Positions 3,866-64,000 of a DNA stretch of 64,000 nucleotides are shown one piece after another. A model generated the notes under the pieces. The model saw nothing but the letters and a program-made list of their open reading frames with translations, searched no databases and was not told the origin of the DNA. The position numbers and the translations under genes are program-made. The DNA is taken from sequence record OQ689735.1; one strand, 5' to 3'. The first letter of the stretch is position 1. Every line of letters begins with the position of its first letter. This DNA comes from Escherichia phage 4E10.

Positions 3866-5284
3866 TTATGGATAGGTATAGATGATACCAGTTTCTAAAG
3901 CAGTTTTATGAATGATATATCCATTACGCGATTCTTGGACATCAACTTCTGGATAGTCTTTCATCATCTTCTGAAGAGTGTAACGATGCAGGTAGTATTT
4001 ACTATCTGAATCTTCAGTTTTCCAATCTTTACCTTCTTCAGTCATTTTTTGAATTTCATCCATAACCCACCAACCGCACCAGATATAAGCTGAGCTACGA
4101 TGTGGAAGAGGATGAACATAAGGTAATTCACCTTCTGGTTCCGGAGCAACTTTATCAGTCACTTGAACTTGACCTGTGGCTTTAACTGTTTTACTATCAT
4201 AGTCAGTTGCTGTAACGACAGCAGTAACTTCAATAGTTTGACTTCCAATAGATGAGGTATCAACAGTATATACGTTAGTTGACCCTTCCACAGGAGAAGA
4301 ATCTTTCTTCCATGAGTAAGTAATTTGTGCTGCTTCAGGTGCGCCAGTAACATTAGCAGTAAATGTAGCCGAAGCATCTTGCTGAACATTAATAGAAGGA
4401 GGAGTCAATGTAACCTGTGGATTCATTGTCTTCTTATTAACTGTCAATGATACTTCATTGGAAGTAACTGTTTTTGCGTCATAATCCGTTGCTGTTACTT
4501 GGGCTACGCATTTAATTCTTTTTACTCCACTTGTAGTTGGAGTATAGTTAAATGTAGAGTTAGTTTCTCCACCAACTTGTGAATCATCTACATACCACTG
4601 ATACGTGGCAGACGCTCCATCAGGTTGAGAAACTAAAGCAGCAGTAAATTGAACCGGGGTTCCAATTACTCCAACAGCAGGACTAGCAGGAGTTACTGCT
4701 AAGGTAGTTGTCTGTGTCTTTTTATTAACCGTCAATGATACTTCATTAGAAGTAACTTCCTTTGCATCATAATCTGTCGCGGTTACTTGAGCTACACACT
4801 TAATTTTTTTAACTCCGCTTGTGGAAGGAGTGTAATTGAATGTAGCAGAAGTTGCTTCGCCCACAGGAGAACCGTCAACGTACCATTGATACGTAGCAGA
4901 TGCACCTGATGGCTGTGAAGCTAAGGCAGCGGTAAATTCAACAGCTGTTCCGATTACTCCTTCTGGAGGACTATTAGGAGTTACTGCTAAGGTAGTTGTC
5001 TGTGTCTTATTTTGAACTGTGATAGTTGTAGTAACTGTAGCTGTTTCAGCTTCAGCTTCTGGAACTGGGTTTGTTGCAACTACTTTAATAGTCTTTTGAC
5101 CGGCAGGTCCTTTTAGTACATAGCTAAAAGTTGCTGACGTTTCTTCCTGCGGAGCGTCGTCTACAGTCCAAGCATATGTAATAGGTCCATCTCCAGTTTG
5201 ACCACTGGGTGTAGCAGTAAACTGCTGAGTCTGATCTATAACTCCAGTAGGTGTTTTAGGAGTTATATCAACGGTAAAAGCCAT
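3866..5284 (-). CDS. hoc: highly immunogenic outer capsid protein Hoc, with an extra internally duplicated Ig-like domain
   Basis: 472 aa; N-terminus and Ig-like repeats as in Hoc; two ~96-aa near-identical tandem units. Confidence 0.85.
   Translation of the reverse strand: MAFTVDITPKTPTGVIDQTQQFTATPSGQTGDGPITYAWTVDDAPQEETSATFSYVLKGPAGQKTIKVVATNPVPEAEAETATVTTTITVQNKTQTTTLAVTPNSPPEGVIGTAVEFTAALASQPSGASATYQWYVDGSPVGEATSATFNYTPSTSGVKKIKCVAQVTATDYDAKEVTSNEVSLTVNKKTQTTTLAVTPASPAVGVIGTPVQFTAALVSQPDGASATYQWYVDDSQVGGETNSTFNYTPTTSGVKRIKCVAQVTATDYDAKTVTSNEVSLTVNKKTMNPQVTLTPPSINVQQDASATFTANVTGAPEAAQITYSWKKDSSPVEGSTNVYTVDTSSIGSQTIEVTAVVTATDYDSKTVKATGQVQVTDKVAPEPEGELPYVHPLPHRSSAYIWCGWWVMDEIQKMTEEGKDWKTEDSDSKYYLHRYTLQKMMKDYPEVDVQESRNGYIIHKTALETGIIYTYP
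4436..5011 (-). repeat. tandem direct duplication of two ~288-bp units inside hoc
   Basis: protein segments KTQTTTLAVTP...NEVSLTVN occur twice in tandem with ~80 percent identity. Confidence 0.8.
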
Positions 5285-15097: not shown

Positions 15098-16062
15098 TGT
15101 ATTCTTTAGAGGAATTTAATAATCAAGCAATAAACGCAGATTTTCAACGTAATAATATGTTTAGCTGCGTTTTTGCGACAACTCCATCAACTAAAAGCTC
15201 TTCGTTGATAAGTTCAATTAGCAACTTTTCTTATAATAACTTGGGTCTAAATTCAGACTGGTTAGGATTGTCTCAAGGCGATATTAATCAGGGAATTACC
15301 ACGCTAATTACTGCTGGCACACAAAAACTGATAAGAAAATCAGGTGTTAGTAAATATCTTATTGGTGCCATGAGTCAACGCACAGTTCAAAGTTTATTGG
15401 GCTCATTTACAGTTGGTACATATTTAATTGACTTCTTTAATATGGCATATAACTCATCTGGGTTGATGATATATTCTGTAAAAATGCCAGAGAATAGATT
15501 ATCCTATGAAACTGACTGGAACTATAACTCTCCTAATATTCGTATAACTGGGAGAGAATTAGACCCTTTGGTTATTTCATTTAGAATGGATTCAGAAGCT
15601 TGTAACTATCGTGCAATGCAAGACTGGGTTAACGCTGTTCAAGACCCAGTAACTGGACTGCGTGCTTTGCCACAAGATGTCGAGGCAGATATTCAGGTTA
15701 ATCTTCATGCTCGTAATGGATTACCTCATACTGCAGTGATGTTCACCGGATGCATTCCAGTGTCAGTGAGCGCTCCTGAGTTATCATATGATGGAGATAA
15801 CCAAATAACTACATTTGATGTTACTTTTGCGTATAGAGTCATGCAGGCTGGGTCGGTTGATAGACAAGCTGCGCTTGAGTGGCTTGAATCTGCTGCTATA
15901 AATGGCATTCAAAGCGTTCTCGGAAATAGCGGAGGTGTTACTGGATTATCTAATTCGCTTTCACGACTTAGTAGATTAGGGGGAACTGCTGGAAGCATTT
16001 CAAACATTAATACTATGACAGGAATTGTCAACTCGCAAAGTAAAATATTAGGAGCAATATAA
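15097..16062 (+). CDS. 54: baseplate tail-tube initiator gp54
   Basis: 321 aa; ATGA-type overlap with gene 48. Confidence 0.85.
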   Translation: MYSLEEFNNQAINADFQRNNMFSCVFATTPSTKSSSLISSISNFSYNNLGLNSDWLGLSQGDINQGITTLITAGTQKLIRKSGVSKYLIGAMSQRTVQSLLGSFTVGTYLIDFFNMAYNSSGLMIYSVKMPENRLSYETDWNYNSPNIRITGRELDPLVISFRMDSEACNYRAMQDWVNAVQDPVTGLRALPQDVEADIQVNLHARNGLPHTAVMFTGCIPVSVSAPELSYDGDNQITTFDVTFAYRVMQAGSVDRQAALEWLESAAINGIQSVLGNSGGVTGLSNSLSRLSRLGGTAGSISNINTMTGIVNSQSKILGAI

Positions 16063-16381: not shown

Positions 16382-16390
16382 TTTGTGTTC

Positions 16391-16442
16391 CTCATGTTAT
16401 GTCAGTAAGATTATTATAACACAACACGAGGGACTTGTAAAC
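16391..16442 (-). repeat. conserved promoter-leader cassette, copy 1 (near-identical to 32183-32238)
   Basis: ~53 nt nearly identical in both copies; carries early promoter, leader and RBS. Confidence 0.8.
16413..16441 (-). promoter_or_regulatory. T4-type early promoter (TTTACA -35, 17 nt, TATAAT -10)
   Basis: minus strand GTTTACAAG..N17..TATAAT upstream of the 96-aa ORF. Confidence 0.6.
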
Positions 16443-18499
16443 TACATCTTGAACTTTTTAGACATTCCGTTGATGTTAACCAAAGAAGCCAAGATTTGAG
16501 AAACTTCGTTTTCCTCTTCTTTTGATTCTTCTACAAGGAATTGATTAAACCCAGCCATTGGACGAACTTCGCCAGTTTCCATTAGATGATCGCCATCATA
16601 TACCGATTCTTCTAATTGTTCAGAAGGAGGAACGATTGTGCCTTCGATTAGATACTTGTTATAAGCAGTTTCTTTCATCATGTACGTGCTTACTTTATTA
16701 ATCTTCAACAAAATTCCACGCGGTAGAATAACTTCAGCTTCTGATGGAAATCCCGATAAATGACCTGGAACGATAACTTTGATTCGCTCAGCCCCTTTAA
16801 TTACCATACCTACGCTAGTTTCAGCATCTTCATTCGCATAAGCAGAATGACTACCCATATGCATCAAATCTTCTGCATCAACAGAACCTTCTCCTTCGCC
16901 AGAAAATACTGCACCGGAATCATCTAGAGCCATATAGTTTTTACCATGCTCACCGAAGATATTTGGTTTAAGCGATGTGGATACGAAGTTCTTGAAATAG
17001 AACATTTTGTTTTCAATGTTATGACGCAAAGTTTTAAAGGTAACTTCTTGTCCACGATAAAGCGTAGTTCCTGGAGGAAGAACTGATCCTTTGGCGAATG
17101 CAGAATCCAGAGTCTCGATGTGCTTAATAGCTCTTTCCATGTATTCTTCACGGGTAGAATCTGGTTTACCCAAAAGGAACGAGTTCATTTCAACATATGA
17201 ATCTGCACAATAATCTTCAATTACATCAGATTCAGCCTGAGTCAGTCCTTTTGGAGTTACTTCGGTGCTTGCGTATTCATATGCCTGAGCAGCAGATTCA
17301 TTAATCAATTTATAAATGCCATTCATGACAAATTGAATAATAGCTACCTTTTCGTCTGGTGTGGCTTTAGAACCTTTAACTAAATCATTGATAATTTTCT
17401 TAATAACATCAAAGCTATTAGAAATATTAATGTCAGCTAGATCGCTCAAAATTTTATCGGTTTTATAATCAAAAAATTCTTTATTCTTTAAATATTCTTG
17501 AGAACCTTGATGTGTTATATCGCTCTGCAGTCTGATAGACGGATCACGTAAACGTGCATGGGCCAATGCAATATGATTTCGGAAGCTTTCTAGTTCATAA
17601 TCGTTAGATTTAAAACGAGAAGCACTTCTCATACCACCGATAGCTCCTTTGCCGAAGTTTGAACCAATCTGAATAACGCCAGAGTTCATTGGTCCTTCTG
17701 CTTTATATACCGGAACTTTAGATTCAAACTCTTGATATTTCTTAGCGGCGAAGCTATCACCCTGTAGCGAAGCATCGACAGTAGAATATTGAGCTTGTGC
17801 TGCTAATCGACGACTAATTTTAGTTTTCTGAATAACAGCTTGATCCGTGCGCTTATCATTTTCTAAAGCAATAGAAGCAGCAACAGCAACAGCTTTAGGA
17901 ACAGCATTACCTGTTTTAACGTCTACATAAACATCACCAACCTTTGATTCAACTTTTGTGAATAACTCAGTTGAAATAGGAGGTACACCTGGAATGTCTT
18001 CTAAATTGGCATTTTTACGGTAAACCATAATATATGCATACTTTTTATCATAGTCCCAGATTTCCTTTAAAAGAACATATCGACCTGCTCCTTTAGTACG
18101 TACTAAACGGTCAGCAATAACTTGCATTTGACGAGCTGCGCCATTTGTTTTACTTTTTAGTACGCGGAATAAGCATGCGTCGATTTTATACTGCTTCATT
18201 GTTTGAAGAGCAGTATCAAAAACCGCATTAATGACGCCAATTGGATTTCCACCCAAGTTTCTAAGTTTAACCAGCGATAATTTCTCGTTGACACCTATCA
18301 TTACGATATGCATCATTTTATCGCCTGGCTTAACGTTTTTATTTGTATCACCACCAGAGGTGTATGTACAAAATCTAAATCCAGGAAGCACACTTTCTTC
18401 GCCGGCTTGAATAGCAAAAATTTGTGGTATTTTATGCTTAGGATTTAAGTTAACAACCGGCGCCGAAGCGCCGTCAAATAATTCTGTAATAAGTTCCAT
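16442..18499 (-). CDS. Alt-like ADP-ribosyltransferase, second paralog
   Basis: 685 aa; N-terminus MELITELFD and C-terminal R-S-E motifs (LYRGQ, FVSTSL, EAEVILPRG) parallel the upstream Alt. Confidence 0.8.
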   Translation of the reverse strand: MELITELFDGASAPVVNLNPKHKIPQIFAIQAGEESVLPGFRFCTYTSGGDTNKNVKPGDKMMHIVMIGVNEKLSLVKLRNLGGNPIGVINAVFDTALQTMKQYKIDACLFRVLKSKTNGAARQMQVIADRLVRTKGAGRYVLLKEIWDYDKKYAYIMVYRKNANLEDIPGVPPISTELFTKVESKVGDVYVDVKTGNAVPKAVAVAASIALENDKRTDQAVIQKTKISRRLAAQAQYSTVDASLQGDSFAAKKYQEFESKVPVYKAEGPMNSGVIQIGSNFGKGAIGGMRSASRFKSNDYELESFRNHIALAHARLRDPSIRLQSDITHQGSQEYLKNKEFFDYKTDKILSDLADINISNSFDVIKKIINDLVKGSKATPDEKVAIIQFVMNGIYKLINESAAQAYEYASTEVTPKGLTQAESDVIEDYCADSYVEMNSFLLGKPDSTREEYMERAIKHIETLDSAFAKGSVLPPGTTLYRGQEVTFKTLRHNIENKMFYFKNFVSTSLKPNIFGEHGKNYMALDDSGAVFSGEGEGSVDAEDLMHMGSHSAYANEDAETSVGMVIKGAERIKVIVPGHLSGFPSEAEVILPRGILLKINKVSTYMMKETAYNKYLIEGTIVPPSEQLEESVYDGDHLMETGEVRPMAGFNQFLVEESKEEENEVSQILASLVNINGMSKKFKM

Positions 18500-18502
18500 G
18501 AT

Positions 18503-20590
18503 TTATCCTTGAACGAACTTGTAAGGCATGTTTGTAATATCTATGCAAGACGCAATAATTCCAAGAGATGATTCGACTTTCTGTTTAACATTTGATGAAA
18601 CAAATGACGCAAAATCAACTCTGTCTTCTATATCACCTGTCATTGTAACCAATTCACCAGTTTCCATTAAATGGTCTCCGTCATAGATTACCGATTCGGT
18701 GAGTTCTTCTGTGGTCATAACTTCAGCTTGAATGAGTTTTGTATTATTAGATGTTGTTCCGTCATTATTAGAAGCATCAGTTATTTTATTAACTTTGACC
18801 ATCAATCCACGCGGTAGAATAACTTCAGCTTCTGTTGCTATTCCGAGACTTCCTGGATATACAACATTAACTTTATGAGCTCCATCAATTGCCCATCCTA
18901 TTTGAACTTTAACGTATTCAGGATTTTCTTTATACGCTCTTATTTCGTTTGGATTAATAGTTATTCCTTCTTCATTTTTATCAACTGTTAATTCATTACG
19001 AGCTTCTGGTTCTAAAAGACCAATACCAGCATGTGTGATTCCAAAACGTCCAAAAATGATAGGAGTTAAAGAAGTAGATACAAAATTTCTGAAGTAGAAC
19101 ACTTTATTTTTAACTAACGCTTCATATATAGGAGCAGTCATACTTTGAGCACGATAAACTGTAATGCCTTCTGGTATACGGTCACCATTTTCAAAAGCTG
19201 AATCTAAGTTATTTATAGCAGATTCAATTTCTTTTTCACTCATTACATCATATCGTTCTGGATTGTAGCGGCCTAAAAGAAGATTATTGATGTCAGTATA
19301 TCCTGAACCGCAATATTCTCTAATGCCACGCTTTTGCGATGGAGTATATTTAGAACCATCACGGGCAATAGTAATATCAATCATTGGACCTGCACCAATT
19401 CCGGAAAAGCTATAAATCATTCGTTTGAGGAATTTAGTTTTTGCTGCGTTCCAAGAATTTTTAGTTATTTCTTCCCAGACTTCATCTGGCTGCCCTTTAC
19501 GAGTTTTATTATGTTTATCAAGCCAATTATCTTTATATTCTTCAAAGAATTGATTAACAGCTGCTGCGTATTTCTCTAAACATTTTATTGAAGTAGTTGG
19601 TTCATTTTTAATCGCATTAAGAATTACATCTTTAATTTTTTCAGAAACTTCATTAACCTCACTTTTTGAAAAGAATTTATAGTCATAGTGAAGTTCATCT
19701 GCGGTTCCTTCGGCAATGATTTTTGCTGCCTTAGTTTTAGAAGCTAATGAATTAATTCCAAGCTTCATTTCTTCTGCTTCGGGAATTAAAGGAGCGGTAG
19801 CAGGTTTATTGAAATTAGCTGCGGTAGATTCATACTTCTGGAATAATTCACTTTCAAATCTAGAAGATTCCAACGACTGACTTTGCGCAATTGCTCTACG
19901 TGAAATTTTAACTTTAACGATTACCGCTTGGTCAGAACGTTTATCATTTTCTTGCGCAATAGATGCTGCAATTGCCTCATTTTTAGTTACTTGGGCTCCA
20001 GTATCTTTATTGATATAAACATCACCGACCTTCGATTCAACTTTAGTAAAGAGCTCGGTACTAATTTCCGGAACTCCTGGAATGTCTTCTAGTGATACAT
20101 TTTTGCGATGTATAAGAATATATGCATACTTTTTATCATAATCCCAGAGTTCCTTGAGAAGGACGTATCTGCCACCTGAACGACTACGGATAAGTCTATC
20201 AGCAATAACTTGAATTTGTCGAGCTTGTCCAGCAGTTTTAGACTTAAGAATACGAAGCATACAAGCATCAATTTTATATTGACGCATTGTTTGCATTGCA
20301 ACAGTAAAAACTGAATTGATATAATTAATTGGGCTTGGACCAAGACCTTTTAATTTAGCAATTGAACCTTTAGCAGTTAATGTAAAAGGAACAATGTGCA
20401 TCATTTTGTCGCCCATTTTTAAATCGCGATTAGTATCACCTCCAGATGTATATGTACATAAACGAAAGCCTGGTTGTTCAATTGCATCATCAACATGAAC
20501 TGAAAAAATTTGTGGTATTTTCTTCTTTGGATTTAAGTTTGTAATCGGAAGAGTAGTATCTTCGTCAAATAATTCTGTAATAAGTTCCAT
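18503..20590 (-). CDS. alt: ADP-ribosyltransferase Alt
   Basis: N-terminus MELITELFDEDTTLPITNLNPKK as in T4 Alt; R-S-E motifs VYRAQ, FVSTSL, EAEVILPRG. Confidence 0.85.
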   Translation of the reverse strand: MELITELFDEDTTLPITNLNPKKKIPQIFSVHVDDAIEQPGFRLCTYTSGGDTNRDLKMGDKMMHIVPFTLTAKGSIAKLKGLGPSPINYINSVFTVAMQTMRQYKIDACMLRILKSKTAGQARQIQVIADRLIRSRSGGRYVLLKELWDYDKKYAYILIHRKNVSLEDIPGVPEISTELFTKVESKVGDVYINKDTGAQVTKNEAIAASIAQENDKRSDQAVIVKVKISRRAIAQSQSLESSRFESELFQKYESTAANFNKPATAPLIPEAEEMKLGINSLASKTKAAKIIAEGTADELHYDYKFFSKSEVNEVSEKIKDVILNAIKNEPTTSIKCLEKYAAAVNQFFEEYKDNWLDKHNKTRKGQPDEVWEEITKNSWNAAKTKFLKRMIYSFSGIGAGPMIDITIARDGSKYTPSQKRGIREYCGSGYTDINNLLLGRYNPERYDVMSEKEIESAINNLDSAFENGDRIPEGITVYRAQSMTAPIYEALVKNKVFYFRNFVSTSLTPIIFGRFGITHAGIGLLEPEARNELTVDKNEEGITINPNEIRAYKENPEYVKVQIGWAIDGAHKVNVVYPGSLGIATEAEVILPRGLMVKVNKITDASNNDGTTSNNTKLIQAEVMTTEELTESVIYDGDHLMETGELVTMTGDIEDRVDFASFVSSNVKQKVESSLGIIASCIDITNMPYKFVQG

Positions 20591-24528: not shown

Positions 24529-24544
24529 AGTATTTTCCTCAGTA

Positions 24545-24560
24545 AGGGGCCGAAGCCCCT
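24545..24560 (-). terminator. stem-loop aggggc-cgaa-gcccct
   Basis: 6-bp GC stem 9 nt after the stop of the 121-aa ORF. Confidence 0.5.
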
Positions 24561-24568
24561 GTTTTATT

Positions 24569-24934
24569 TTAAATATCAAATTCGTTAAGAACTACATCAA
24601 AGATTGCTTCAAGATGCTCAGGTTTAGCTCTGTTACTCAAAATATGACGAATCCAAGTTTTAACCAGAAGCTTACGATTAGCGCCATTCCAGCAAGGATG
24701 GGTCCCTAAATCGCGTTGACGAAAATCATCATCCAGAGCGATTTTAAAGTTGGAACCTTCCATTGTGATTGAAACCGTGATGCCATTTTCAAATCGCATA
24801 TAAACGTAATTAGGAGTCATATACTGTTCAATTTCGCATACTGATCCATTTTGATGTTTCCAAAGGCAAATAGTATCAATAGAACCTGCAATACCATTAG
24901 AAACATATTTACGTTCAAAGTTGATGTAGTTCAT
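24569..24934 (-). CDS. hypothetical 121-aa protein
   Basis: ORF preceded by an early promoter. Confidence 0.55.
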   Translation of the reverse strand: MNYINFERKYVSNGIAGSIDTICLWKHQNGSVCEIEQYMTPNYVYMRFENGITVSITMEGSNFKIALDDDFRQRDLGTHPCWNGANRKLLVKTWIRHILSNRAKPEHLEAIFDVVLNEFDI

Positions 24935-25362: not shown

Positions 25363-25391
25363 ATACTATCACAAAGGAACCATACTGTAAA
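25363..25391 (-). promoter_or_regulatory. early promoter (TTTACA, 17 nt, TAGTAT)
   Basis: GTTTACAG..N17..TAGTAT upstream of the 110-aa ORF. Confidence 0.5.
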
Positions 25392-25420
25392 CAACTTTGT
25401 GCAATCTTTGGAAAATAAAA

Positions 25421-25442
25421 AAGGACTCCCGAAGGAGTCCTT
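25421..25442 (-). terminator. stem-loop aaggactcc-cgaa-ggagtcctt
   Basis: 9-bp stem 4 nt after the stop of the basic small-protein gene; T-run on minus. Confidence 0.55.
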
Positions 25443-32182: not shown

Positions 32183-32238
32183 GTCCTCATGTTATGTCAG
32201 TAAGACTACTATAACACAACACGAGGGAACTTGTAAAC
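32183..32238 (-). repeat. conserved promoter-leader cassette, copy 2 (near-identical to 16391-16442)
   Basis: cctcatgttatgtcagtaaga..tataacacaacacgaggga(a)cttgtaaac shared with copy 1. Confidence 0.8.
32208..32237 (-). promoter_or_regulatory. early promoter for alc
   Basis: minus strand GTTTACAAG..N18..TATAGT with GAGGA RBS in leader. Confidence 0.55.
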
Positions 32239-40560: not shown

Positions 40561-40803
40561 TCAAACAGACTTTTTCACAATTTTCCAATCAGCTTTAAAC
40601 TGTTCAACGTCAGAATGGTAAATCCAGAATCCTGCGCTTTCTCCATCCTCATAAAGAGGGCATCCATCACATTCATCTTCCCATCCCATATCACGCAAAA
40701 GATGTTCAGCTTTTTCAACAAGTTCAGAATCTTTACCGATGATATTAAAATACCATTTACCTCTAACTTCTGAATCTTTGATGCTCTGGCGTTGTAATCT
40801 CAT
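40561..40803 (-). CDS. hypothetical 80-aa protein
   Basis: start moved to ATG with GAGGAG RBS downstream of early promoter. Confidence 0.55.
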   Translation of the reverse strand: MRLQRQSIKDSEVRGKWYFNIIGKDSELVEKAEHLLRDMGWEDECDGCPLYEDGESAGFWIYHSDVEQFKADWKIVKKSV

Positions 40804-40829
40804 TTTATTCTCCTCAAGTTGATAGGGTA

Positions 40830-40858
40830 ATAGTATCACACTACTACCCTGTTGTAAA
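40830..40858 (-). promoter_or_regulatory. early promoter with -10 bracketed by inverted repeat agggta/taccct
   Basis: minus strand GTTTACAAC..N17..TACTAT; inverted repeat at 40824-40829 and 40845-40850. Confidence 0.55.
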
Positions 40859-40861
40859 CAA

Positions 40862-41164
40862 TTATTTTTGAATTTTATCGAGCCACTTACCAAGCTTAAT
40901 CATTTCTTTAGTAGCCTTTTCCATACTTCTGAACTTAACCAATAGAGGATAGGTATCGACACCCATAACTAAACTGGTTACAAGACTGTGTTCACCCACA
41001 AGCCATAACGAATACGTTTGAATATCGAGTCCGTAATTTCTGTCTTTATGGACCCGTACACCCATCACTTCAAATTTCTCACTAGCTTTTTCTACCGCAT
41101 CCAGGAAATCATCTTTAGTCATATTAGGCCTTAAAAGTTTTTCGCAAAAGTTCAATGATTTCAT
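40862..41164 (-). CDS. hypothetical 100-aa protein
   Basis: ORF. Confidence 0.55.
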   Translation of the reverse strand: MKSLNFCEKLLRPNMTKDDFLDAVEKASEKFEVMGVRVHKDRNYGLDIQTYSLWLVGEHSLVTSLVMGVDTYPLLVKFRSMEKATKEMIKLGKWLDKIQK

Positions 41165-41510
41165 CTACATTGTTTTCGTCAACAATGCAGTGAATTTTTG
41201 TTACGCCAGAAACTATACCTTCATTAGCGGATTGAGGCTTTTCTAAAGTTACCTCAGTAAAGTATTTGAATTCTTCAGAGTAAATCTCAAAATACGTCTC
41301 AAGTGGGCCACCCGCCATGTATTCAGTGCCGTCTTCCATAGTTACACGTACCACACAGTCACCAGCACAATCATCACTTTCCATTTCATCTACAACAAAA
41401 CTAGGTCCGTGCTTCTCTATTAAATTTAGCATCATTACATTGCAACGGCACTCGTTAGCAAAGTCATTTTTAAATAAAGGGTTAATGATATAAGTTTTTC
41501 CAACTTCCAC
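41124..41510 (-). CDS. hypothetical 128-aa protein
   Basis: ORF. Confidence 0.55.
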   Translation of the reverse strand: MEVGKTYIINPLFKNDFANECRCNVMMLNLIEKHGPSFVVDEMESDDCAGDCVVRVTMEDGTEYMAGGPLETYFEIYSEEFKYFTEVTLEKPQSANEGIVSGVTKIHCIVDENNVDEIIELLRKTFKA

Positions 41511-41530
41511 TTTGATTTCCTCATTTTAAC

Positions 41531-41549
41531 GGGGCTATCAAATAGCCCC
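41531..41549 (-). terminator. stem-loop ggggcta-tcaaa-tagcccc
   Basis: 7-bp stem between two minus-strand ORFs. Confidence 0.45.
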
Positions 41550-41556
41550 TTGATAA

Positions 41557-41787
41557 TTATTGTTCAATCAGTCCCATGTAAAATTCTGCGTCTTCAGAAT
41601 CCATGCCATCGCAATATTCATTAGCCATAAAGCGGGTAAGGTCTTCAAGAGGACCTTCAATGACAATAGAAAAATTGCAATAATTGGGATCATCATGAAT
41701 ACTTGTGATACTAAGTTCAGGATAACGATTACGAATAATCTCTTCAATATATTCAAAATCAACGATGTCAATATCAACTTTAGCCAT
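41557..41787 (-). CDS. hypothetical 76-aa acidic protein
   Basis: ATG with GAGGAAAA RBS downstream of early promoter cassette. Confidence 0.55.
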
Positions 41788-41830
41788 ATTATTTTCCTCT
41801 TTAATCATCAGCAGTATTGCCGATAGTTGT

Positions 41831-41859
41831 ATAGTACCATAAAGCCTTATGTTTGTAAA
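41831..41859 (-). promoter_or_regulatory. early promoter (TTTACA, 17 nt, TACTAT)
   Basis: GTTTACAAAC..N17..TACTAT on minus strand. Confidence 0.6.
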
Positions 41860-41890
41860 CCGTTTTGTGAAAAATTTTTGAAATAAAAAA

Positions 41891-41909
41891 GGGGACCTCT
41901 AGGGTCCCC
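41891..41909 (-). terminator. gene 32 terminator stem-loop ggggacc-tctag-ggtcccc plus T-run
   Basis: 7-bp GC stem about 22 nt after gene 32 stop, followed on minus by TTTTTTATTT. Confidence 0.6.
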
Positions 41910-41931
41910 AATTAATTAGTAATATAATCTA

Positions 41932-42840
41932 TTAAAGGTCATTCAAAAGGTCATCCAGGTCCGTGTCATCAGCACTAGATGAACTGCCAGAGCTTGAGCT
42001 CATAAAATCATCTTCAGTTTTTGTATTGAAGTCATCAACATTGAATGCATCCAAATCATCAGCAACTTTATCAGCTTTCTTAGCAGCAGTTGCAGCGGCA
42101 CCGCCCATCACAGCAGTTCCCATAACTTGACTGAACTTAGTGCTCAGTTCTTCAAACGATTTGAATTTATCTTTAGAAGTCATTTCAGAAAGGTCAACCA
42201 TTTGTTCGAACAGTTCTTTCTGGAAAGATTCATCGTCAATGTTTGGAATCGCAGATTGATTCAGGAATTTAGATTCGTCGTAGTTACTAAAACCAGAAAC
42301 TTGTTTAACTTTCAGTACAAAGTTAGCACCTTCCCACGGACAAGTTACATCAACCGGAGTTTCACCCATTTCAACATCAACTGCAATCATTGCATTGATT
42401 TTATCCCAGATTTTCTTACCGAAACGGTATTTAAATACTTTACCTTCATTTTCTGGAGCAGCTGGGTCTTTTACAACAAGAATGTTAGCCCAGTAAGAAG
42501 TTTTACGTTTAACAAGACTGTACTCTTTATTGTCAGTGTTGTACAGATCATTTTTACTGATGTATTGACATACTGGGCAAGAATCGTAATCACCGTGAGT
42601 AGATGAACAGTTTTCAATATACCATTTACCATTTTTCTTGAAACCGTGATTTACAAGAATTGCAAATGGTGCTTGTTCATCATTTTTAGACGGAAGAAAA
42701 CGAATTACTGCTTGACCGTTACCCGCATTATCGAGTTTCAGTTTCCACTCGCCTTTATCTTCAGAAGAAAAACCACCTTTATTTCCAGCCAGTTTAGCCA
42801 TTTGTGCAGCGAGTTCAGCAGTAGATTTACGTTTAAACAT
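41932..42840 (-). CDS. 32: single-stranded DNA-binding protein gp32
   Basis: 302 aa; N-terminus [24 protein letters not shown] and acidic Ser/Asp-rich C-terminus. Confidence 0.93.
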
Positions 42841-42907
42841 TTTTATTTCCTTTTTAATTTAATTAACAGTTGGTGCTATGACGATGTATGACCTCATAGC
42901 TGGTCAG
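42841..42907 (-). promoter_or_regulatory. gene 32 autoregulatory translational operator (pseudoknot plus AU-rich leader)
   Basis: minus-strand leader TGACC-ag-CTATGA-GGTCA-tacatcg-TCATAG followed by UUAAUUAAAUUAAAAAGGAAAUAAAA-AUG. Confidence 0.65.
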
Positions 42908-42910
42908 TGA

Positions 42911-42940
42911 GATAATTATAATCTATTTATAATAAGCAAT
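42911..42940 (-). promoter_or_regulatory. gene 32 promoter region (late TATAAATA overlapping MotA box and -10)
   Basis: plus-strand TATTTATA at 42924-42931; minus strand TTGCTTA, 12 nt, TATAAT. Confidence 0.45.
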
Positions 42941-43593
42941 TAATACTTACAAGATTTCACAGTTTCAATGAAAACACTTTTAGCTTTCTGTGAATCAATA
43001 TTTAAAATTTTTCTATAAGCCTTTAACTTTATAGAATAATTATTCCAGACTAAATTATCAGTCTGTTCATCGTGTTTATCAATTATATTTAAAAACGAAT
43101 CAAGCAAGATAAACGTTTCAAACGAAATTATGTTCGATTGAAGTAGTTTAAAAATATAGCTTGATTGAACCTTTGGATTATACTCAAAGATTTCTTTAAA
43201 AGCAGAAACTTCAACTTTTTTACTAAAATAATAAATGTTGCGAATATCTTCTTCAAACTTAAATTTAATTTGCTTTAAGCGCCCGATATATTCACGATAA
43301 AACACAAGTGCATCAGCGTCAGAGATGTCACCAATCCAAGCATCTTGGTTAGCAACCAAATTACTTATAAAAATTAAAGCAAGTTCCTTTAATTTATATT
43401 TTTCTGATAACTTCTGGAAAAAATACTTATCCCTTCGCTTTTGATAAGCGGCATCAGACACCCGCATGCACCAATTATACTTAATTACATCATACTTTCC
43501 ATTCATATGTTGTTTTATCATTAAGTATAATTTATAAACTGATTTACCATCAATATATCTTTCACCACCAGCAGGCATGCGGAGTTTAATCAT
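42940..43593 (-). CDS. 59: helicase loader gp59
   Basis: 217 aa, T4 gp59 length; directly upstream of gene 32 with no intervening ORF. Confidence 0.9.
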   Translation of the reverse strand: MIKLRMPAGGERYIDGKSVYKLYLMIKQHMNGKYDVIKYNWCMRVSDAAYQKRRDKYFFQKLSEKYKLKELALIFISNLVANQDAWIGDISDADALVFYREYIGRLKQIKFKFEEDIRNIYYFSKKVEVSAFKEIFEYNPKVQSSYIFKLLQSNIISFETFILLDSFLNIIDKHDEQTDNLVWNNYSIKLKAYRKILNIDSQKAKSVFIETVKSCKY

Positions 43594-57507: not shown

Positions 57508-57833
57508 TTAAACCATCCTTTAATACGTTGCCACAAAGTTTTCTGTTGAGCTTTGTTAACACCAATTGAACGAATAACTGGTTGAGATTCCTGGAATTCT
57601 TTATAATCGGCAAGGTAAATTTCGTAAGCTGCATCAGTAAATGAACTTATCGCTGCCATAAAATTATTGCGAATACCTACTGGAGCATCTTTACTTTCAC
57701 GAATAATCATGTATTTACCAGTCTTAATCTTTACGATAGTTCCAAGATAAGCTCCATGGTACCAAATATCCCAACCCTCTTGAGTAGGTTCTGCGCAACG
57801 ACGAAGTTCATTAACAATTTCTAACTTGTTCAT
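57504..57833 (-). CDS. hypothetical protein (motA.1 position)
   Basis: 109-aa ORF. Confidence 0.55.
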
Positions 57834-57843
57834 TATTTATTCC

Positions 57844-58479
57844 TCACAGTTCAGATGCTACAGTGATTACTGCTTCAATGTTTTCTACTGAGCGTTTAAT
57901 GTCAAGATACACATTACCGTTTTTAGCGATTTTACATGACATTCCGATGTCAGTAAATTTCTGAATATGATGTTCCATCATTTTGTATCCAAAAATTCGC
58001 ATATTTCCATTGTTGTTAATTTCAAAATTACGAATTCCGTGAGTGCGTTTTTCTAAAATAGCAAGATAGTTACTGCGATAAGTTTCAACCTTTTTAAGAA
58101 CAAATCCATTTTCATCTAAAAGTTTTAACATGAGGTCTTTATCTTCTTCCATATCGGAAGTAATCTCGCGAGCTTTACGAGTTGCTCGTTTTTTCAGCAG
58201 TTCCGGAGCATTTTCCTGTGCGTATAAAGTTGCTGCGTTTGAAATAATATCCTGAGCTTCACCTGTAATGATTAATCCATCACCAGATTTCTCCACCAGG
58301 CCTTTTTTAATCAATACCCCAATATTACTATTAACTACTGCGTTACCTAAATCTGGATGCACCTCACGAACTTCTGCAGCTGTAATGAAATCTTTCTTAG
58401 CAATAGTAATTAAAATCGCAGCAGTTTTTTCATTCAGAACATCGTTAGAAGCTTTGATGATGTAAGTTACTTTAGACAT
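57844..58479 (-). CDS. motA: middle-promoter transcription activator MotA
   Basis: 211 aa; N-terminus MSKVTYIIKASNDVLNEKTAAILITIAKKDF. Confidence 0.92.
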   Translation of the reverse strand: MSKVTYIIKASNDVLNEKTAAILITIAKKDFITAAEVREVHPDLGNAVVNSNIGVLIKKGLVEKSGDGLIITGEAQDIISNAATLYAQENAPELLKKRATRKAREITSDMEEDKDLMLKLLDENGFVLKKVETYRSNYLAILEKRTHGIRNFEINNNGNMRIFGYKMMEHHIQKFTDIGMSCKIAKNGNVYLDIKRSVENIEAVITVASEL

Positions 58480-58520
58480 TTTCTAATCTCCGTAATTCTG
58501 TATCAGTAGTTGATAGTTGT

Positions 58521-58549
58521 ATAGTACCACAGTATGCTTTGGTTGTAAA
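58521..58549 (-). promoter_or_regulatory. early promoter for motA (TTTACA, 17 nt, TACTAT)
   Basis: GTTTACAACC..N17..TACTAT about 45 nt upstream of motA ATG. Confidence 0.65.
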
Positions 58550-58581
58550 CCGTTTTGTGAAAAAAATTTTAAAATAAAAAA

Positions 58582-58601
58582 GGGAGAGCCTCGGCTCTCC
58601 C
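58582..58601 (-). terminator. stem-loop gggagag-cctcgg-ctctccc plus T-run
   Basis: 7-bp GC stem followed on minus by TTTTTTATTTT. Confidence 0.6.
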
Positions 58602-58606
58602 TAAAA

Positions 58607-58756
58607 TTACTGCATGACTGTGATAACTGTCATGATAACACGTTGAATTCCGAACGCAAGAAGACCTCCTGCTACGGCTGGAACAACGCCTAAACCCGCC
58701 AGTAAAATGCCACCGGATACTAATGCGGCGCTTGTAATACCAATGAATGGACTCAT
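58607..58756 (-). CDS. hypothetical 49-aa hydrophobic glycine-rich membrane peptide
   Basis: ATGA-coupled to gene 52 stop with GAGGAAA RBS; below ORF-track cutoff. Confidence 0.5.
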   Translation of the reverse strand: MSPFIGITSAALVSGGILLAGLGVVPAVAGGLLAFGIQRVIMTVITVMQ

Positions 58757-60081
58757 TTGATTTCCTCTAAATCTTTGGTGTATTCGGTAACTACATCAGT
58801 AGTTTTCCAATATTCGTTTTCTTCTTTCTTAGCTTTAGCTTCTTCAGCAAGTTTCTTTGCTTCATCGGAAGTCATATGAAAAATATTCATTCCAACTAGT
58901 TTATCAACATAAGAAGAATACATATCAATTTTAGAAAGTTCTTCGGTCAGTTCTTTGCGAGTTTTACCTTGTACAACAATTTCACCTGAAATTACTTTCT
59001 TAATGAAATGCGCCTTGGCAAAGGCTAAACGAAATGCTGATTCAGTTTCTTTAATTTTGTTATCAATTCGTTTTTGAACATAAGTTTTACGAACTTCAAC
59101 AAAGTCTTTAATTAAATCAACTACGTTATCATAAACTTGTAGCTTTCCTTTCTCATTAATGACGGTAATATTCTGAGAACGACGCTCAATCAGTCCGAAG
59201 TCTTTCATAATTTTTGCATGGCGTTCTTCTTCATTATCGCTCAAAGAATATTCTTTACGGAATTTAACTTTGAATCCAAAACCATGCTCACCGCAAGCAT
59301 CATCCCATGTAATGAAGCCTTTATCTTCAAGTGGGTCTAAGATTTTACTCACATAAGTTTCACGATCATACTTATACGGAATCTCAGTGATATGCATTTG
59401 AGTTCGTGAAGTAAACTTATATGTTCCACGAATTTCATATTGCCCATCAATTTCAACGACTTCACCACGAAATTCTGGGAATTCTACCTTCGGTTTAGTT
59501 ACTTTCTTTCCTTGAAGAGCTTGCAGTACAGCTTTCTTGACAGAAGAAACACTATGAGGAAGAATGTAAGTTGCATAACCAGTTGCAATACCGGAAACGC
59601 CATTAAGAAGAACAGTAGGAATAATAGGCAAATAGAAAGCAGGCGGAATGTGTTCTTTATCTTGATGTACCGGAGCATATTCAGTATCTTTATATACGTT
59701 ATAGAAATTTTTACTTACACGAGCAAAAATATAACGACTTGCCGCTGCTTTTTGAACGGTACGAGAACCAAAGTTTCCTTGACCATCTAACAGAGGAAAG
59801 TTATTATTCCAAGTATTAGCCATCAAAGCTCCCGCATCTTGTGCAGAGTTTTCGCCATGGTGATATCCAAGGTCCGCTACACCACCTGCAATAGAAGCGA
59901 GTTTGTGAAACTTATCTTTATTTCCTCGCGCCAAATCAAGAGCTCGAGCAATAACAAATCGTTGAACTGGCTTAAATCCATCAATCATATTTGGAATGGC
60001 ACGATTTTCAACCGTGTACATAGCATAAGCCAATGCTTCATTATCAATGATACTTTTTAAATCGCGATTATTCAGTTGCAT
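58753..60081 (-). CDS. 52: DNA topoisomerase II medium subunit gp52
   Basis: 442 aa; GyrA-like N-terminus; sequence recognised. Confidence 0.93.
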   Translation of the reverse strand: MQLNNRDLKSIIDNEALAYAMYTVENRAIPNMIDGFKPVQRFVIARALDLARGNKDKFHKLASIAGGVADLGYHHGENSAQDAGALMANTWNNNFPLLDGQGNFGSRTVQKAAASRYIFARVSKNFYNVYKDTEYAPVHQDKEHIPPAFYLPIIPTVLLNGVSGIATGYATYILPHSVSSVKKAVLQALQGKKVTKPKVEFPEFRGEVVEIDGQYEIRGTYKFTSRTQMHITEIPYKYDRETYVSKILDPLEDKGFITWDDACGEHGFGFKVKFRKEYSLSDNEEERHAKIMKDFGLIERRSQNITVINEKGKLQVYDNVVDLIKDFVEVRKTYVQKRIDNKIKETESAFRLAFAKAHFIKKVISGEIVVQGKTRKELTEELSKIDMYSSYVDKLVGMNIFHMTSDEAKKLAEEAKAKKEENEYWKTTDVVTEYTKDLEEIK

Positions 60082-61634: not shown

Positions 61635-61662
61635 TTTCTGTTCCTCCGTAGTTGATAGGGTA

Positions 61663-61691
61663 ATAGTACCACGGAAGAACAGTCTTGTAAA
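61663..61691 (-). promoter_or_regulatory. early promoter (TTTACA, 17 nt, TACTAT)
   Basis: GTTTACAAGAC..N17..TACTAT on minus strand. Confidence 0.55.
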
Positions 61692-61877
61692 CAACTTTTT
61701 TAAAAATATTCGTAATAAATGTGAATACCAACTACTACCGCTGAAACCTGTGCAACCCACCACGCACAAGCAATAAGTACAGAATTCAAAATTTTCATAA
61801 TAACCTCATCACAAAAGTAAATGTTAAACAAATTACTGGAATACTAATTAACCAAACAAAACACCACCATAATGAAC

Positions 61878-62141
61878 TCATAGTTCAATCTCAGCGATTT
61901 TCATTTCATTACTATTAATAGCCTCTTTAAGACTATCTGAAAGAATTACACACCAGTGGTCATTCATATGACCATTAACTAAGCGTGTAATTTCTTCGGG
62001 AGTGGAAAAATAAGGCGTATCAGACTCCCAATGCGATAATCCCAAGCGAGTATAAATCATACCTTCATCATCGCTAGAATATTCAACTGACACAAACTCA
62101 TCAGTTATTTTATGTTTAGCGTAATAAAATTTAAATTTCAT
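61878..62141 (-). CDS. hypothetical 87-aa protein (ndd.x)
   Basis: ATG with GGAGGAG RBS downstream of early promoter. Confidence 0.55.
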   Translation of the reverse strand: MKFKFYYAKHKITDEFVSVEYSSDDEGMIYTRLGLSHWESDTPYFSTPEEITRLVNGHMNDHWCVILSDSLKEAINSNEMKIAEIEL

Positions 62142-62168
62142 TTTTACTCCTCCGTAGCTGATAGTTGT

Positions 62169-62197
62169 ATAGTACCACGGTCCTTGTGGTATGTAAA
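62169..62197 (-). promoter_or_regulatory. early promoter (TTTACA, 17 nt, TACTAT)
   Basis: GTTTACATACC..N17..TACTAT; shares cassette sequence with motA promoter. Confidence 0.6.
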
Positions 62198-62213
62198 CTG
62201 TTTTGTGAAATTT

Positions 62214-62771
62214 TTAAATGGAAAGATACCATCCGTTGTAGTTGCTTTTTCTTACAACCTTACGAAGGTCTTCTCTATCACCGATGAACTTCGGAGTGTA
62301 CTGGATGACACCTGGGTGAATTTCTTTAGTGTTGAATATAATTATACAGTCAGCGACTTGATGATTTAGAATGGGCCCTAGATTTATTCCAGAACCGTAT
62401 GGATACTCTCCGCTGCATCCTGTTGTTACCGAAATCCAACGCGAGTCAGTTTGATGTGTTTTGACTTCTACACGAAGCCCGCAATATTTTGGATGCGCTA
62501 AAACATCCCATGCATACGTGTACGGATCATCGACATTTTCTTGGCCTTTATTGACATATCCGCTTAGCCAATCTGCCACAAAAAACTCTGCGTACACAGC
62601 GATACGGCATCTTTCGATAACTTCTGCTTTATCCTGGTTCGGGTTTTGTTTTAAAGAGTATCTTGCTGTATCAGCAATTTTGACCTTCATTTCACTAGTC
62701 AAGTCACTGTTCGATAGGGTAAATGTCGGAATCTGAAATAGTCTCTGTAAACCCGGATTCGTTTTCTGCAT
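62214..62771 (-). CDS. denB: endonuclease IV (cytosine-specific ssDNA endonuclease)
   Basis: 185 aa, T4 DenB length and position. Confidence 0.85.
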   Translation of the reverse strand: MQKTNPGLQRLFQIPTFTLSNSDLTSEMKVKIADTARYSLKQNPNQDKAEVIERCRIAVYAEFFVADWLSGYVNKGQENVDDPYTYAWDVLAHPKYCGLRVEVKTHQTDSRWISVTTGCSGEYPYGSGINLGPILNHQVADCIIIFNTKEIHPGVIQYTPKFIGDREDLRKVVRKSNYNGWYLSI

Positions 62772-62815
62772 TTAAACTTTCCTTTATGTCGGAATCATAA
62801 TTTCTCTTAAAACAA

Positions 62816-62831
62816 AAGGGCCGAAGCCCTT
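62816..62831 (-). terminator. stem-loop aagggc-cgaa-gccctt
   Basis: 6-bp GC stem 4 nt after the stop of the 64-aa ORF. Confidence 0.5.
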
Positions 62832-62834
62832 ATT

Positions 62835-63029
62835 TTATTTGAATTGTGCGATTCTTTTCTCTAGACACTCAGCATAAGATTTCATTGAGATGAACTGTGA
62901 AAGCAGCAGTTCTTGCTCAACTGCACTAACCGTTAGAAACTTTGTGCTTTCTAAAAATTTGCTCAGTGCATTAATTTTGAGCATTAATTGATCGTATTCT
63001 TCTTTTACTCGTGCTTGATAACCTAACAT
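62835..63029 (-). CDS. hypothetical protein (denB.1 position)
   Basis: 64-aa ORF. Confidence 0.5.
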   Translation of the reverse strand: MLGYQARVKEEYDQLMLKINALSKFLESTKFLTVSAVEQELLLSQFISMKSYAECLEKRIAQFK

Positions 63030-63047
63030 AATTTTCCTTAATATGAT

Positions 63048-63063
63048 AAGGGCCGAAGCCCTT
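63048..63063 (-). terminator. stem-loop aagggc-cgaa-gccctt overlapping rIIB stop
   Basis: identical hairpin sequence to 62816-62831. Confidence 0.5.
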
Positions 63064-64000
63064 ATTTAAATTGTTCAGTAACGTCTTCAACTACTTCGTA
63101 TTGACAGGTACGCATTTTAGCATCGTTGTAATCAATCGGAATTGATACTACATCGCGAGGATGAACTTTAACTTTTACAACTCGACTAGTTGAACTACCA
63201 AAGTGACGAATATAAGATTTAGAACACACATGCAGACCACGAGAACAAGTTTGTGTATCATCGTCATTCACACGAGTACGTGGCATTTTAACTACTTTAC
63301 CCGGACTGTTATCAAAGGTGTTTGAGTGACAGTCAAAGTAGTTGTCACGAACTACTTTCCAAGCATAGAAGTAACCATCTTCTGTAATTTCAATATCGTT
63401 TGCTACCAAGAAATCAAAGAGTCGAGATACCGCTTTTTGGCTTGGGTTTTCCAACAGATTTTCCAAGAACGGAAAATAAAATTCAAAGTTTTCGCCTTTT
63501 TCCATCGAATCAAGAATACGATCAACCAAACCAGAACGCAATTCAATATTTTGATAGAACAAGCTTCCGCCTTCAATTCGAACATCACCGGAAATATATT
63601 TTTCAACAGCGCGACGAACATTAATTTTTTGTGCCGCTTCTTCTAACTTATCTGCTACGAGCAGATTAAGAATTTCCTGGAAGTTTGAATGAGTATTAGG
63701 TGTTGCATTATAAGTTACACCATCAACAGTAATCGAAATGAATTTTTTAGATGCATTCCAAATAATGTCAGATTTAGCAACTGGAGCAATAACTGCATCG
63801 CTATTAACTTTAACTGTAATATCACCGCTAATAGTAACTTTAGAGTGTTTAGCTTCTTCAGCATTTTTCAAAACACGACGGATTGTGTCAACCGATACAC
63901 CTTGCCAATCAGCCAATTCCTGCTGAGTATAATTACCGCTTGAATACAGTTTAACAATTTCAGCTTGTTCGTTTTTGGTCAGGCATTTAATATTGTACAT
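63062..64000 (-). CDS. rIIB: rIIB rapid-lysis protein
   Basis: 312 aa; ATG at last bases of window; N-terminus MYNIKCLTKNEQAEIVKLYSSGNYTQQELADWQG. Confidence 0.9.
   Translation of the reverse strand: MYNIKCLTKNEQAEIVKLYSSGNYTQQELADWQGVSVDTIRRVLKNAEEAKHSKVTISGDITVKVNSDAVIAPVAKSDIIWNASKKFISITVDGVTYNATPNTHSNFQEILNLLVADKLEEAAQKINVRRAVEKYISGDVRIEGGSLFYQNIELRSGLVDRILDSMEKGENFEFYFPFLENLLENPSQKAVSRLFDFLVANDIEITEDGYFYAWKVVRDNYFDCHSNTFDNSPGKVVKMPRTRVNDDDTQTCSRGLHVCSKSYIRHFGSSTSRVVKVKVHPRDVVSIPIDYNDAKMRTCQYEVVEDVTEQFK

Follow-up and report, generated by a model that had tools for sequence, protein, structure and literature searches.

The 64,000-nucleotide (nt) stretch of Escherichia phage 4E10 analysed here (OQ689735.1; this whole stretch is called the window) carries two similar intergenic elements in which a predicted transcription terminator is joined directly to a predicted early promoter. 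The first, copy A, fills the gap between gene 32 and frd.3, the second, copy B, fills the gap between motA.1 and motA, and the genes around both are all on the minus strand. Gene names were taken from the annotation of RB51, T4 and PST together with lists of open reading frames (ORFs). Megablast searches with 41000-43000 and 57800-59200 gave ECO95, CAM-21, wV7 and RB51 as the closest relatives, and hundreds of Tequatrovirus (T4-like) genomes matched both loci at 95-99% identity; judged by these matches, the window is a Tequatrovirus of the RB51/wV7 group. The two loci comprise the following features (SD, Shine-Dalgarno sequence; aa, amino acids).

41932-42840, minus strand: gene 32, single-stranded DNA-binding protein, upstream gene of copy A (ORF list, RB51 and T4 annotation)
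41881-41909, minus strand: predicted intrinsic terminator of copy A (terminator scan), stem-loop GGGGACC-CTAGA-GGTCCCC, that is GGGGACCCTAGAGGTCCCC (41909-41891), followed by the T-run TTTTTTATTT (41890-41881)
41822-41880, minus strand: predicted early promoter of copy A, UP-like A/T tract, G+TTTACA -35 (41860/41859-41854), 17-nt spacer, -10 TACTAT (41836-41831), leader ACAACTATC (41830-41822)
41557-41787, minus strand: frd.3, 76 aa, gene behind copy A, SD GAGG at 41799-41796, ATG at 41787
58607-58756, minus strand: motA.1, 49-aa hydrophobic ORF, upstream gene of copy B (T4 and PST annotation)
58571-58602, minus strand: predicted intrinsic terminator of copy B (terminator scan), stem-loop AGGGAGAGC-CGAG-GCTCTCCCT, that is AGGGAGAGCCGAGGCTCTCCCT (58602-58581), followed by the T-run TTTTTATTTT (58580-58571)
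58498-58570, minus strand: predicted early promoter of copy B, A/T tract, G+TTTACA -35 (58550/58549-58544), spacer ending in TGG, -10 TACTAT (58526-58521), leader ACAACTATCAACTACTGATACAG
57844-58479, minus strand: motA, 211 aa, gene behind copy B, SD GGAG at 58491-58488, ATG at 58479

Build and similarity of the two copies

Read in the direction of transcription, both copies have a common build: a GC hairpin and its T-run come first, then an A/T tract that closes with CACAAAACG, the GTTTACA block, 17 nt of spacer with TGG as its last letters, TACTAT, and finally the leader ACAACTATC before the SD and the ATG. Each has the structure of an intrinsic terminator, with a GC-rich hairpin and a U-run directly after it at the end of a transcription unit, the hairpin starting 22 nt past the gene 32 stop codon in copy A and 4 nt past the motA.1 stop codon in copy B. 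The 7-bp hairpin of copy A folds at -14.3 kcal/mol and the 9-bp hairpin of copy B at -19.0 kcal/mol (z -4.5); the latter is annotated as a terminator in the G4498 and wV7 records. Rfam returned zero matches at the gathering threshold anywhere in the window, which rejects a known structured RNA family. Both promoters read TTTACA-N17-TACTAT with TGn (41859-41831 in copy A, 58549-58521 in copy B) and have A/T-rich tracts, TTTTTTATTTCAAAAATTTTTCACAAAAC and TTTTTTATTTTAAAATTTTTTTCACAAAAC, upstream of the -35. In this they agree with the early promoters of T4 (UP/-35/TGn/-10; Hinton 2010, PMC2988021), which share the GTTTAC -35, the 17-nt spacer, TGn, the -10 hexamer, the A/T-rich upstream tract and extra conserved positions. 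Promoters of this class are active immediate-early with the unmodified sigma-70 RNA polymerase of the host, and for motA of T4 such activity is documented (PMC2988021). A first-pass annotation of the window had described a hairpin terminator, an A-rich tract and -35/-10 elements in each copy, and the terminator scan, the folds and the promoter elements agree with it.

Copies of both elements are present in T4 almost unchanged, the T4 motA cassette differing from that of the window at one aligned position, and the duplication must therefore be older than the divergence of T4 and 4E10. The hairpin and T-run of copy A are identical to the T4 sequence directly after gene 32, that is, to the T4 gene 32 terminator; what is distinctive here is its fusion to an early promoter with near-copies elsewhere in the genome. 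The gene 32 terminator is efficient, and Prentki and Krisch (1984) reportedly built it into their Omega interposon.

Local alignment of 41815-41910 with 58503-58603 gave 71 identities in 83 positions (85.5%), as the first-pass annotation had estimated for the two stretches of about 90 nt, and a wider alignment that takes in the hairpins gave 85/104. The stem sequences of the two copies are unlike, and the near-identical part extends from the T-run to about +11. The alignment score of 95 compares with 16.5 ± 2.6 (maximum 28) for 1000 dinucleotide-preserving shuffles (z about 31), and when the window was scanned as 120-nt tiles on both strands, copy B was the best match to copy A outside copy A itself. 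Shuffles and tile scan together rule out chance or AT-richness as the source of the likeness.

Could the promoter consensus alone account for it? GTTTACN-N16-18-TANNNT sites were collected from T4 positions 1-100,000 plus the window, a composite genome that is near-complete except for T4 100-105 kb, with a separate check of the orthologs that the window copies have in T4; the 34 intergenic sites on the transcribed strand were kept, and their 561 pairs were compared over 77 anchored positions. Copies A and B share 53 of the 77 and rank 7 among the 561 pairs, whose mean is 32.2 ± 6.6, and they stand about 5 standard deviations above a null built from the column frequencies of the family (33.5 ± 4.0). 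Census and null together reject similarity due to consensus only, so that the likeness extends beyond the consensus positions to which, as the first-pass annotation had allowed, it might have been limited. Because copies A and B and about five relatives are far more alike than the consensus of the class needs, they form a paralogous subfamily within the T4 early promoters. The census also contains a second very similar pair, with -35 elements at 16441 and 32237, which shares 54/77 anchored positions; in it a 45-nt block (16389-16433 and 32184-32228) running from the spacer through the -10 to the SD is 96% identical.

A family of cassettes within and between genomes

Although the likeness between copies A and B is real, they are not the two-copy duplication that the first-pass annotation had seen in them but members of a family: in a BLAST search, the motA cassette matched at about 7 places per Tequatrovirus genome in 550 records. 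The repeated motif has 4 copies within the window. Its close relatives in T4 lie at 55383 (between nrdC.11 and nrdC.10, with a terminator of its own), 27079 (between gene 43 and imm.1), 70695 (upstream of e.8), 53942 and 58779. The shorter promoter copies that had been listed at 40858-40830, 61691-61663 and 62197-62169 are all present; they and a third unit of terminator and promoter in the window are as follows.

62154-62225, minus strand: hairpin-less member upstream of the 87-aa ORF268 homolog (61878-62141), -35 62197-62192, -10 62174-62169, leader ACAACTATCAGCTACGGAGGAG
61650-61727, minus strand: member of the TACTAT-TACCCTATCAACTACGGAGGA sub-type, -35 61691-61686, -10 61668-61663
40817-40868, minus strand: member upstream of frd.1 (40561-40803), -35 40858-40853, -10 40835-40830
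25363-25440, minus strand: third terminator-plus-early-promoter cassette, alike in build to copies A and B, between the 30.9-like and 30.8-like ORFs, hairpin GGACTCCTTCGGGAGTCC (25440-25423), T-run, CACAAAGTTG-TTTACA, -10 TAGTAT

Copy A lies at the edge of the variable frd region beside the core gene 32 and copy B precedes the core gene motA, while the members at 62197, 61691 and 40858 are in variable regions. Members also have spacers in common: that of the frd.3 copy agrees with that of the T4 nrdC.10 copy at 14/16 positions, and that at T4 27079 with that at window 61691 at 15/16. The leader of the motA copy is identical (20/20) to those at T4 70695 and 27079, and its upstream part is nearest to the frd.3 and nrdC.10 copies. 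Since spacers are hardly constrained by promoter function and are shared nonetheless, and since different segments have different nearest relatives, this pattern points to shared descent together with exchange among the copies.

Two further observations concern the hairpins and the -10 region. The hairpin GGACTCCTTCGGGAGTCC of the third cassette (window 25423-25440) is identical to the hairpin between soc and mrh.2 in T4 (about 15290-15330), and this recurrence suggests that the terminator hairpins are themselves a repeated family. In 10 of the 34 early promoters the -10 is flanked by the two arms of a perfect inverted repeat (threshold 7 nt, longest 14 nt), one in the spacer and one in the leader, compared with a mean of 0.43 and a maximum of 4 when the leaders were shuffled; examples in the window are 28932-28904, 25391-25363 and 24999-24972, and copies A and B are without such a repeat. 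As the downstream arm often reaches the SD, transcripts that read through from upstream could sequester the SD, and those started at the promoter could not.

The family is not restricted to Tequatrovirus. In Moonvirus CF1, the nrdC.11/nrdC.10 locus carries the gene-32-type hairpin, T-run, UP tract, -35, frd.3-type spacer and -10, at 91% identity over 88 nt between flanks that cannot be aligned, and this recurrence of the full unit indicates that terminator and promoter can travel together. Dhakavirus VR5 also has a terminator and an early promoter after gene 32, but the hairpin is a different one and the gene behind is frd.2; frd.3 comes two genes on with a promoter of its own, and the order of the small frd ORFs varies between genera. 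A comparison of the gene 32-downstream and motA promoters in Tequatrovirus and Dhakavirus gave the following counts.

Tequatrovirus paralogs (32-downstream versus motA promoters): 52/69 over all segments, 20/26 in the core (-20 to +12)
Dhakavirus paralogs: 34/69 over all segments, 25/26 in the core
Orthologs, 32-downstream: 32/69 over all segments, 16/26 in the core
Orthologs, motA: 34/69 over all segments, 18/26 in the core

Paralogs within a genus are thus more alike than orthologs between genera in a small sample (two loci, two genera, two different Dhakavirus species), a hint of what concerted evolution, or the repeated replacement of cassettes, would produce.

Exchange of small ORFs at cassette loci

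The clearest case of gene exchange is found at the motA cassette. In phage G4498 a 75-aa ORF (ORF75) sits between the motA.1 terminator and motA. The terminator is followed by a promoter that is identical to that of the motA cassette, by ORF75, by another early promoter and by motA, and the same 23-nt leader stands on either side of ORF75. This ORF is present in 168 phage records, and the G4498-type spacing at the motA locus is also seen in PYps35T and L14. Dhakavirus JS10 has ORF75 (98.7% aa identity) between tandem promoter repeats of about 58 nt. A three-way alignment of G4498, the window and JS10 resolves the junctions: G4498 is of the window type up to TACTATACAACTATCAA; from there its leader, ORF75 and second promoter are of the JS10 type (about 98%), and the window type resumes at ACGGAGATT/ATG of motA. 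The left crossover maps to CTATCAA (window 58516-58510), so that the two junctions fall in the -10/leader core and in the SD/start of motA. The flanking genes 52 and arn.4 of G4498 and JS10 are only 72-80% identical, and in its motA coding sequence G4498 goes with the window and not with JS10. Read from this alignment, the insertion of ORF75 is an inter-genus exchange with a Dhakavirus-like donor whose junctions lie in the two conserved blocks of the cassette. An assembly artefact is unlikely because independent genomes, well over 100 of them, share the G4498-type arrangement. If mini-circles form, their obvious substrate would be the tandem promoters that flank ORF75 in JS10 and G4498.

A second locus of this kind is the denB-proximal member at 62197, which Comeau et al. 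2014 show in their Fig. 6A (PMC4122927). Behind its promoter PST carries ORF269 and ORF268, the window ORF268 alone with its own cassette-type leader and SD, and T4 only a relic of ORF268, its final eight codons. Relative to T4, there are also indels on both sides of the frd.1 promoter (40858). Directly upstream of it the window has a 100-aa ORF that T4 is without. This ORF (window 40862-41164) is a homolog of RB51ncORF239c and differs from Dhakavirus VR5 gp254 at 3 of 85 shared residues; since its protein is near-identical in the window and VR5, and frd.3 next to it has clearly diverged more between the two phages, it seems to have moved from one genus to another recently. Directly past the promoter and before frd.1, a hydrophobic ORF of 24 aa with its own SD (146082-146008, MFAPYIMAAVMLVCLYLLIKAC) lies unannotated in T4; it is missing from the window (40830-40803).

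Behind copy A itself, no variation was found within Tequatrovirus apart from the genome of phage vB_EcoM_11B_SA_NWU (OR062527). There, about 105 nt are missing relative to window 41837-41945, so that gene 32 is without its final codons and stop and the cassette without hairpin, UP tract and -35, and the residual spacer ctgttcttccatgg matches the spacers of T4 27079 and 70695. Natural recombination at the cassette may have produced this variant, or else a misassembly at a repeat.

Interpretation and alternative explanations

Promoter-early stem-loop (PeSL) cassettes of T4-type phages were described by Arbiol et al. 2010 (PMC2839356) and Comeau et al. 2014 (PMC4122927), including the T4/PST pair. 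As in those, a stem-loop or terminator is combined here with an A/T tract, a strong sigma-70-type early promoter and an SD/start, the unit is repeated in the genome beside small ORFs, and both promoters fit the T4/PST consensus TTTACW-N17-TAYWAT (PMC4122927). All the sequence-level features of PeSL cassettes, namely promoter, A/T tract, stem-loop, SD/start and repetition within the genome, are present in copies A and B. PeSL cassettes are also tied to insertions, deletions and replacements between close relatives, and such changes are seen with ORF75 at copy B and in the three arrangements at 62197; copy A varies only between genera, with frd.2 behind it in Dhakavirus. The assignment of copies A and B to the PeSL type, as proposed in the first-pass annotation, is supported by these sequence features, the ORF75 junctions in the motA copy and the arrangements at 62197. 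Published PeSL cassettes lie by preference in hyperplastic regions beside ORFans, and exchange between neighbouring ones forms extrachromosomal mini-circles (PMC2839356). Copies A and B differ from the published picture in that they adjoin core genes (32 and motA), are very stable and do not lie deep in a hyperplastic region. The kind of element is already known from the T4/PST phage group, in the descriptions of 2010 and 2014, and what is added here is the inter-genus insertion at the motA cassette, the recurrence of a whole cassette in Moonvirus and the signal of concerted evolution.

We propose that copies A and B are compact PeSL-type units at which transcription stops and restarts, and that the family shares descent and serves as portable homology for the exchange of small ORFs; we give this reading a probability of about 0.85. 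The hairpin and U-run would end transcripts coming from gene 32 (copy A) or from 52-motA.1 (copy B), and the T-run and A/T tract would also serve as UP region to a very strong early promoter for sigma-70 (GTTTACA, 17 nt, TGn-TACTAT). Transcription would start about 7 nt past TACTAT and yield a short conserved leader, roughly AUCAAC..., followed by the SD and frd.3 or motA. With a terminator and a promoter of its own, the downstream gene should therefore receive immediate-early expression regardless of upstream traffic. The copies would also exchange segments, and promoter-led small ORFs would be inserted, deleted and permuted at them, between genera as well. With 50-75 nt of near identity retained among them, the copies could be used by the homologous recombination of the phage as portable homology; indeed, the homology needed for T4 recombination is under 50 bp, and short patches suffice (Arbiol et al.; Singer et al. 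1982, cited in PMC2839356). We infer terminator and promoter activity, and the recombination enzymes involved, from established T4 knowledge combined with the sequence.

If the reading holds, such cassettes explain how single genes can have insulated early expression while small accessory ORFs are gained, lost and permuted without harm to neighbouring transcription units. For annotation, such repeats are better read as regulatory cassettes and recombination-prone homology than as unexplained duplications, and repeats of the PeSL kind could mislead short-read assemblies.

Two other kinds of mobile arrangement bear comparison. The morons of lambdoid phages (Hendrix et al. 2000, discussed in PMC2839356) are, like ORF75, small accessory genes with their own promoter and/or terminator between resident genes, but they are thought to arise by illegitimate recombination in which the regulatory signals are not the vehicle, whereas the ORF75 junctions lie in regulatory sequence common to donor and recipient. 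Integron cassettes and the 'linker' sequences of Botstein also have short conserved sequences that flank exchangeable ORFs and steer them to permissive expressed positions; here, unlike in integrons, there is no integrase or attC-type site, and general homologous recombination on 20-75 nt of promoter and leader would be the simplest explanation.

Several points weigh against our proposal. Most of the time, both copies behave as ordinary conserved regulatory DNA: the order gene 32-cassette-frd.3 is intact in about 483 Tequatrovirus records, and motA stands behind its cassette in all relatives examined. Since indels of whole ORFs survive only between genes, and intergenic DNA is here largely made of promoters, some association of indels with cassettes is expected under any mechanism; proximity alone is for this reason weak evidence, and the strong evidence lies in the base-resolved junctions of G4498. 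Since copies A and B have unlike hairpin sequences, the duplicated unit may be the promoter and T-run and not the full terminator, although CF1 demonstrates recurrence of the full unit, and the sample behind the comparison of paralogs and orthologs is small. Finally, copies A and B cannot themselves be a pair for mini-circle formation or deletion: they have the same orientation, 16.7 kb apart, and enclose gene 32, the tail-fibre genes, asiA and motA, and an A x B deletion would be lethal.

The same stability bears on the first-pass view that the genes behind the cassettes are modular and exchangeable, which was overstated for copies A and B. MotA is a core early regulator encoded by a documented early gene, whose deletion is lethal in T4 (PMC2988021), and the place of frd.3 is the one kept in the records just mentioned. 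Different ORFs do occur behind the same cassette in relatives, as ORF75 at motA and the arrangements at 62197 demonstrate, but motA and frd.3 stay; the cassettes therefore mark positions for slotting in extra promoter-led ORFs and do not mark motA or frd.3 as exchangeable.

Among the alternatives, an old duplication that is now purely regulatory and kept by purifying selection, with nearby indels reflecting only the tolerance of intergenic DNA, fares best, though we consider it unlikely. Near-constancy of the copies between T4 and 4E10 and across hundreds of genomes is what it predicts, the insertion of the 100-aa ORF by the frd.1 promoter has weak flanking repeats only, and the loss of ORF268/269 from T4 can be explained by microhomology at AAATG. 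Nevertheless, the G4498 junctions coincide with the two most conserved blocks of the cassette and not with arbitrary intergenic sites, ORF75 of JS10 is bracketed by the tandem promoter repeat, and the mosaicism of segments, together with paralogs that are more alike than orthologs, indicates continuing exchange.

More doubtful still is a bolder form of exchange, in which the TACTAT-N4-CTATCAAC block at the transcription start would be a preferred crossover site, possibly recognised by a phage factor, and early promoters would act as attachment sites of a recombinase-free or cryptic-recombinase cassette system. If so, the copies within one lineage would be actively kept alike by the system, which would also bring in promoter-led ORFs from other genera.

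Convergence, in which the long early-promoter consensus and the T-runs of terminators produce the likeness with neither shared descent nor a role in recombination, is largely refuted and has very little probability left. T4 early promoters do have unusually long consensus regions (PMC2988021), the census found TACTAT in 15/34 promoters and CTATC at one downstream position in 12/34, the spacers of copies A and B are just 7/16 identical, and their hairpin stems differ. However, the pair exceeds the column-frequency null (53 versus 33.5 ± 4.0, about 5 standard deviations), unconstrained spacers are shared at 13-15/16 by other members, the stem and loop of CF1 are of the gene 32 type, and G4498 is a base-resolved recombinant with a junction within the cassette.

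Least probable of all is a site-specific system with integron-like insertion and excision, in which a phage recombinase or nuclease would recognise the stem-loop, a possibility that Arbiol et al. raise for GGGG...CCCC stem-loops (PMC2839356), or the core, to which the G4498 crossover in the short conserved motif CTATCAA would be suited: the hairpins differ between copies A and B and from those of Dhakavirus, the G4498 junctions are away from the hairpin and the right-hand one is simply the shared SD/start of motA, and apart from the general recombination machinery of T4 no recombinase was reported for these phages (PMC2839356), a machinery for which short patches of homology are enough (Singer et al. 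1982, cited in PMC2839356).

Neighbouring genes and other repeats add some minor observations. The GGAG SD of motA is a known RegB cleavage motif, and because of its cleavage MotA is made only within minutes of the start of infection (PMC2988021, PMC3014915). The frd.3 protein matches Pfam PF05798, itself an uncharacterised family, and ORF75, the 100-aa ORF, the ORF268 homolog and motA.1 match solely PHROG families of unknown function. Between frd.3 and frd.2 (window 41511-41556) lies a GC hairpin, GGGGCTATTTGATAGCCCC, with no T-run and no promoter, a stem-loop-only intergenic element. Near the 62197 locus, denB.1 (62835-63029) is bracketed by 41-nt direct repeats (62801-62841 and 63033-63073, 78% identical), each with a hairpin GGGCCGAAGCCC; a related copy is found at 24530-24570, and these repeats recall the GGGC/GCCC motifs at T4 deletion endpoints (Mosig 1998, cited in PMC2839356). 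Elsewhere the window contains a 288-nt tandem duplication (4427-5002, 79% identical) and repeat pairs spaced by about 2088 nt (16551-16753 with 18636-18844, and 18046-18460 with 20134-20548), which suggest a duplicated gene.

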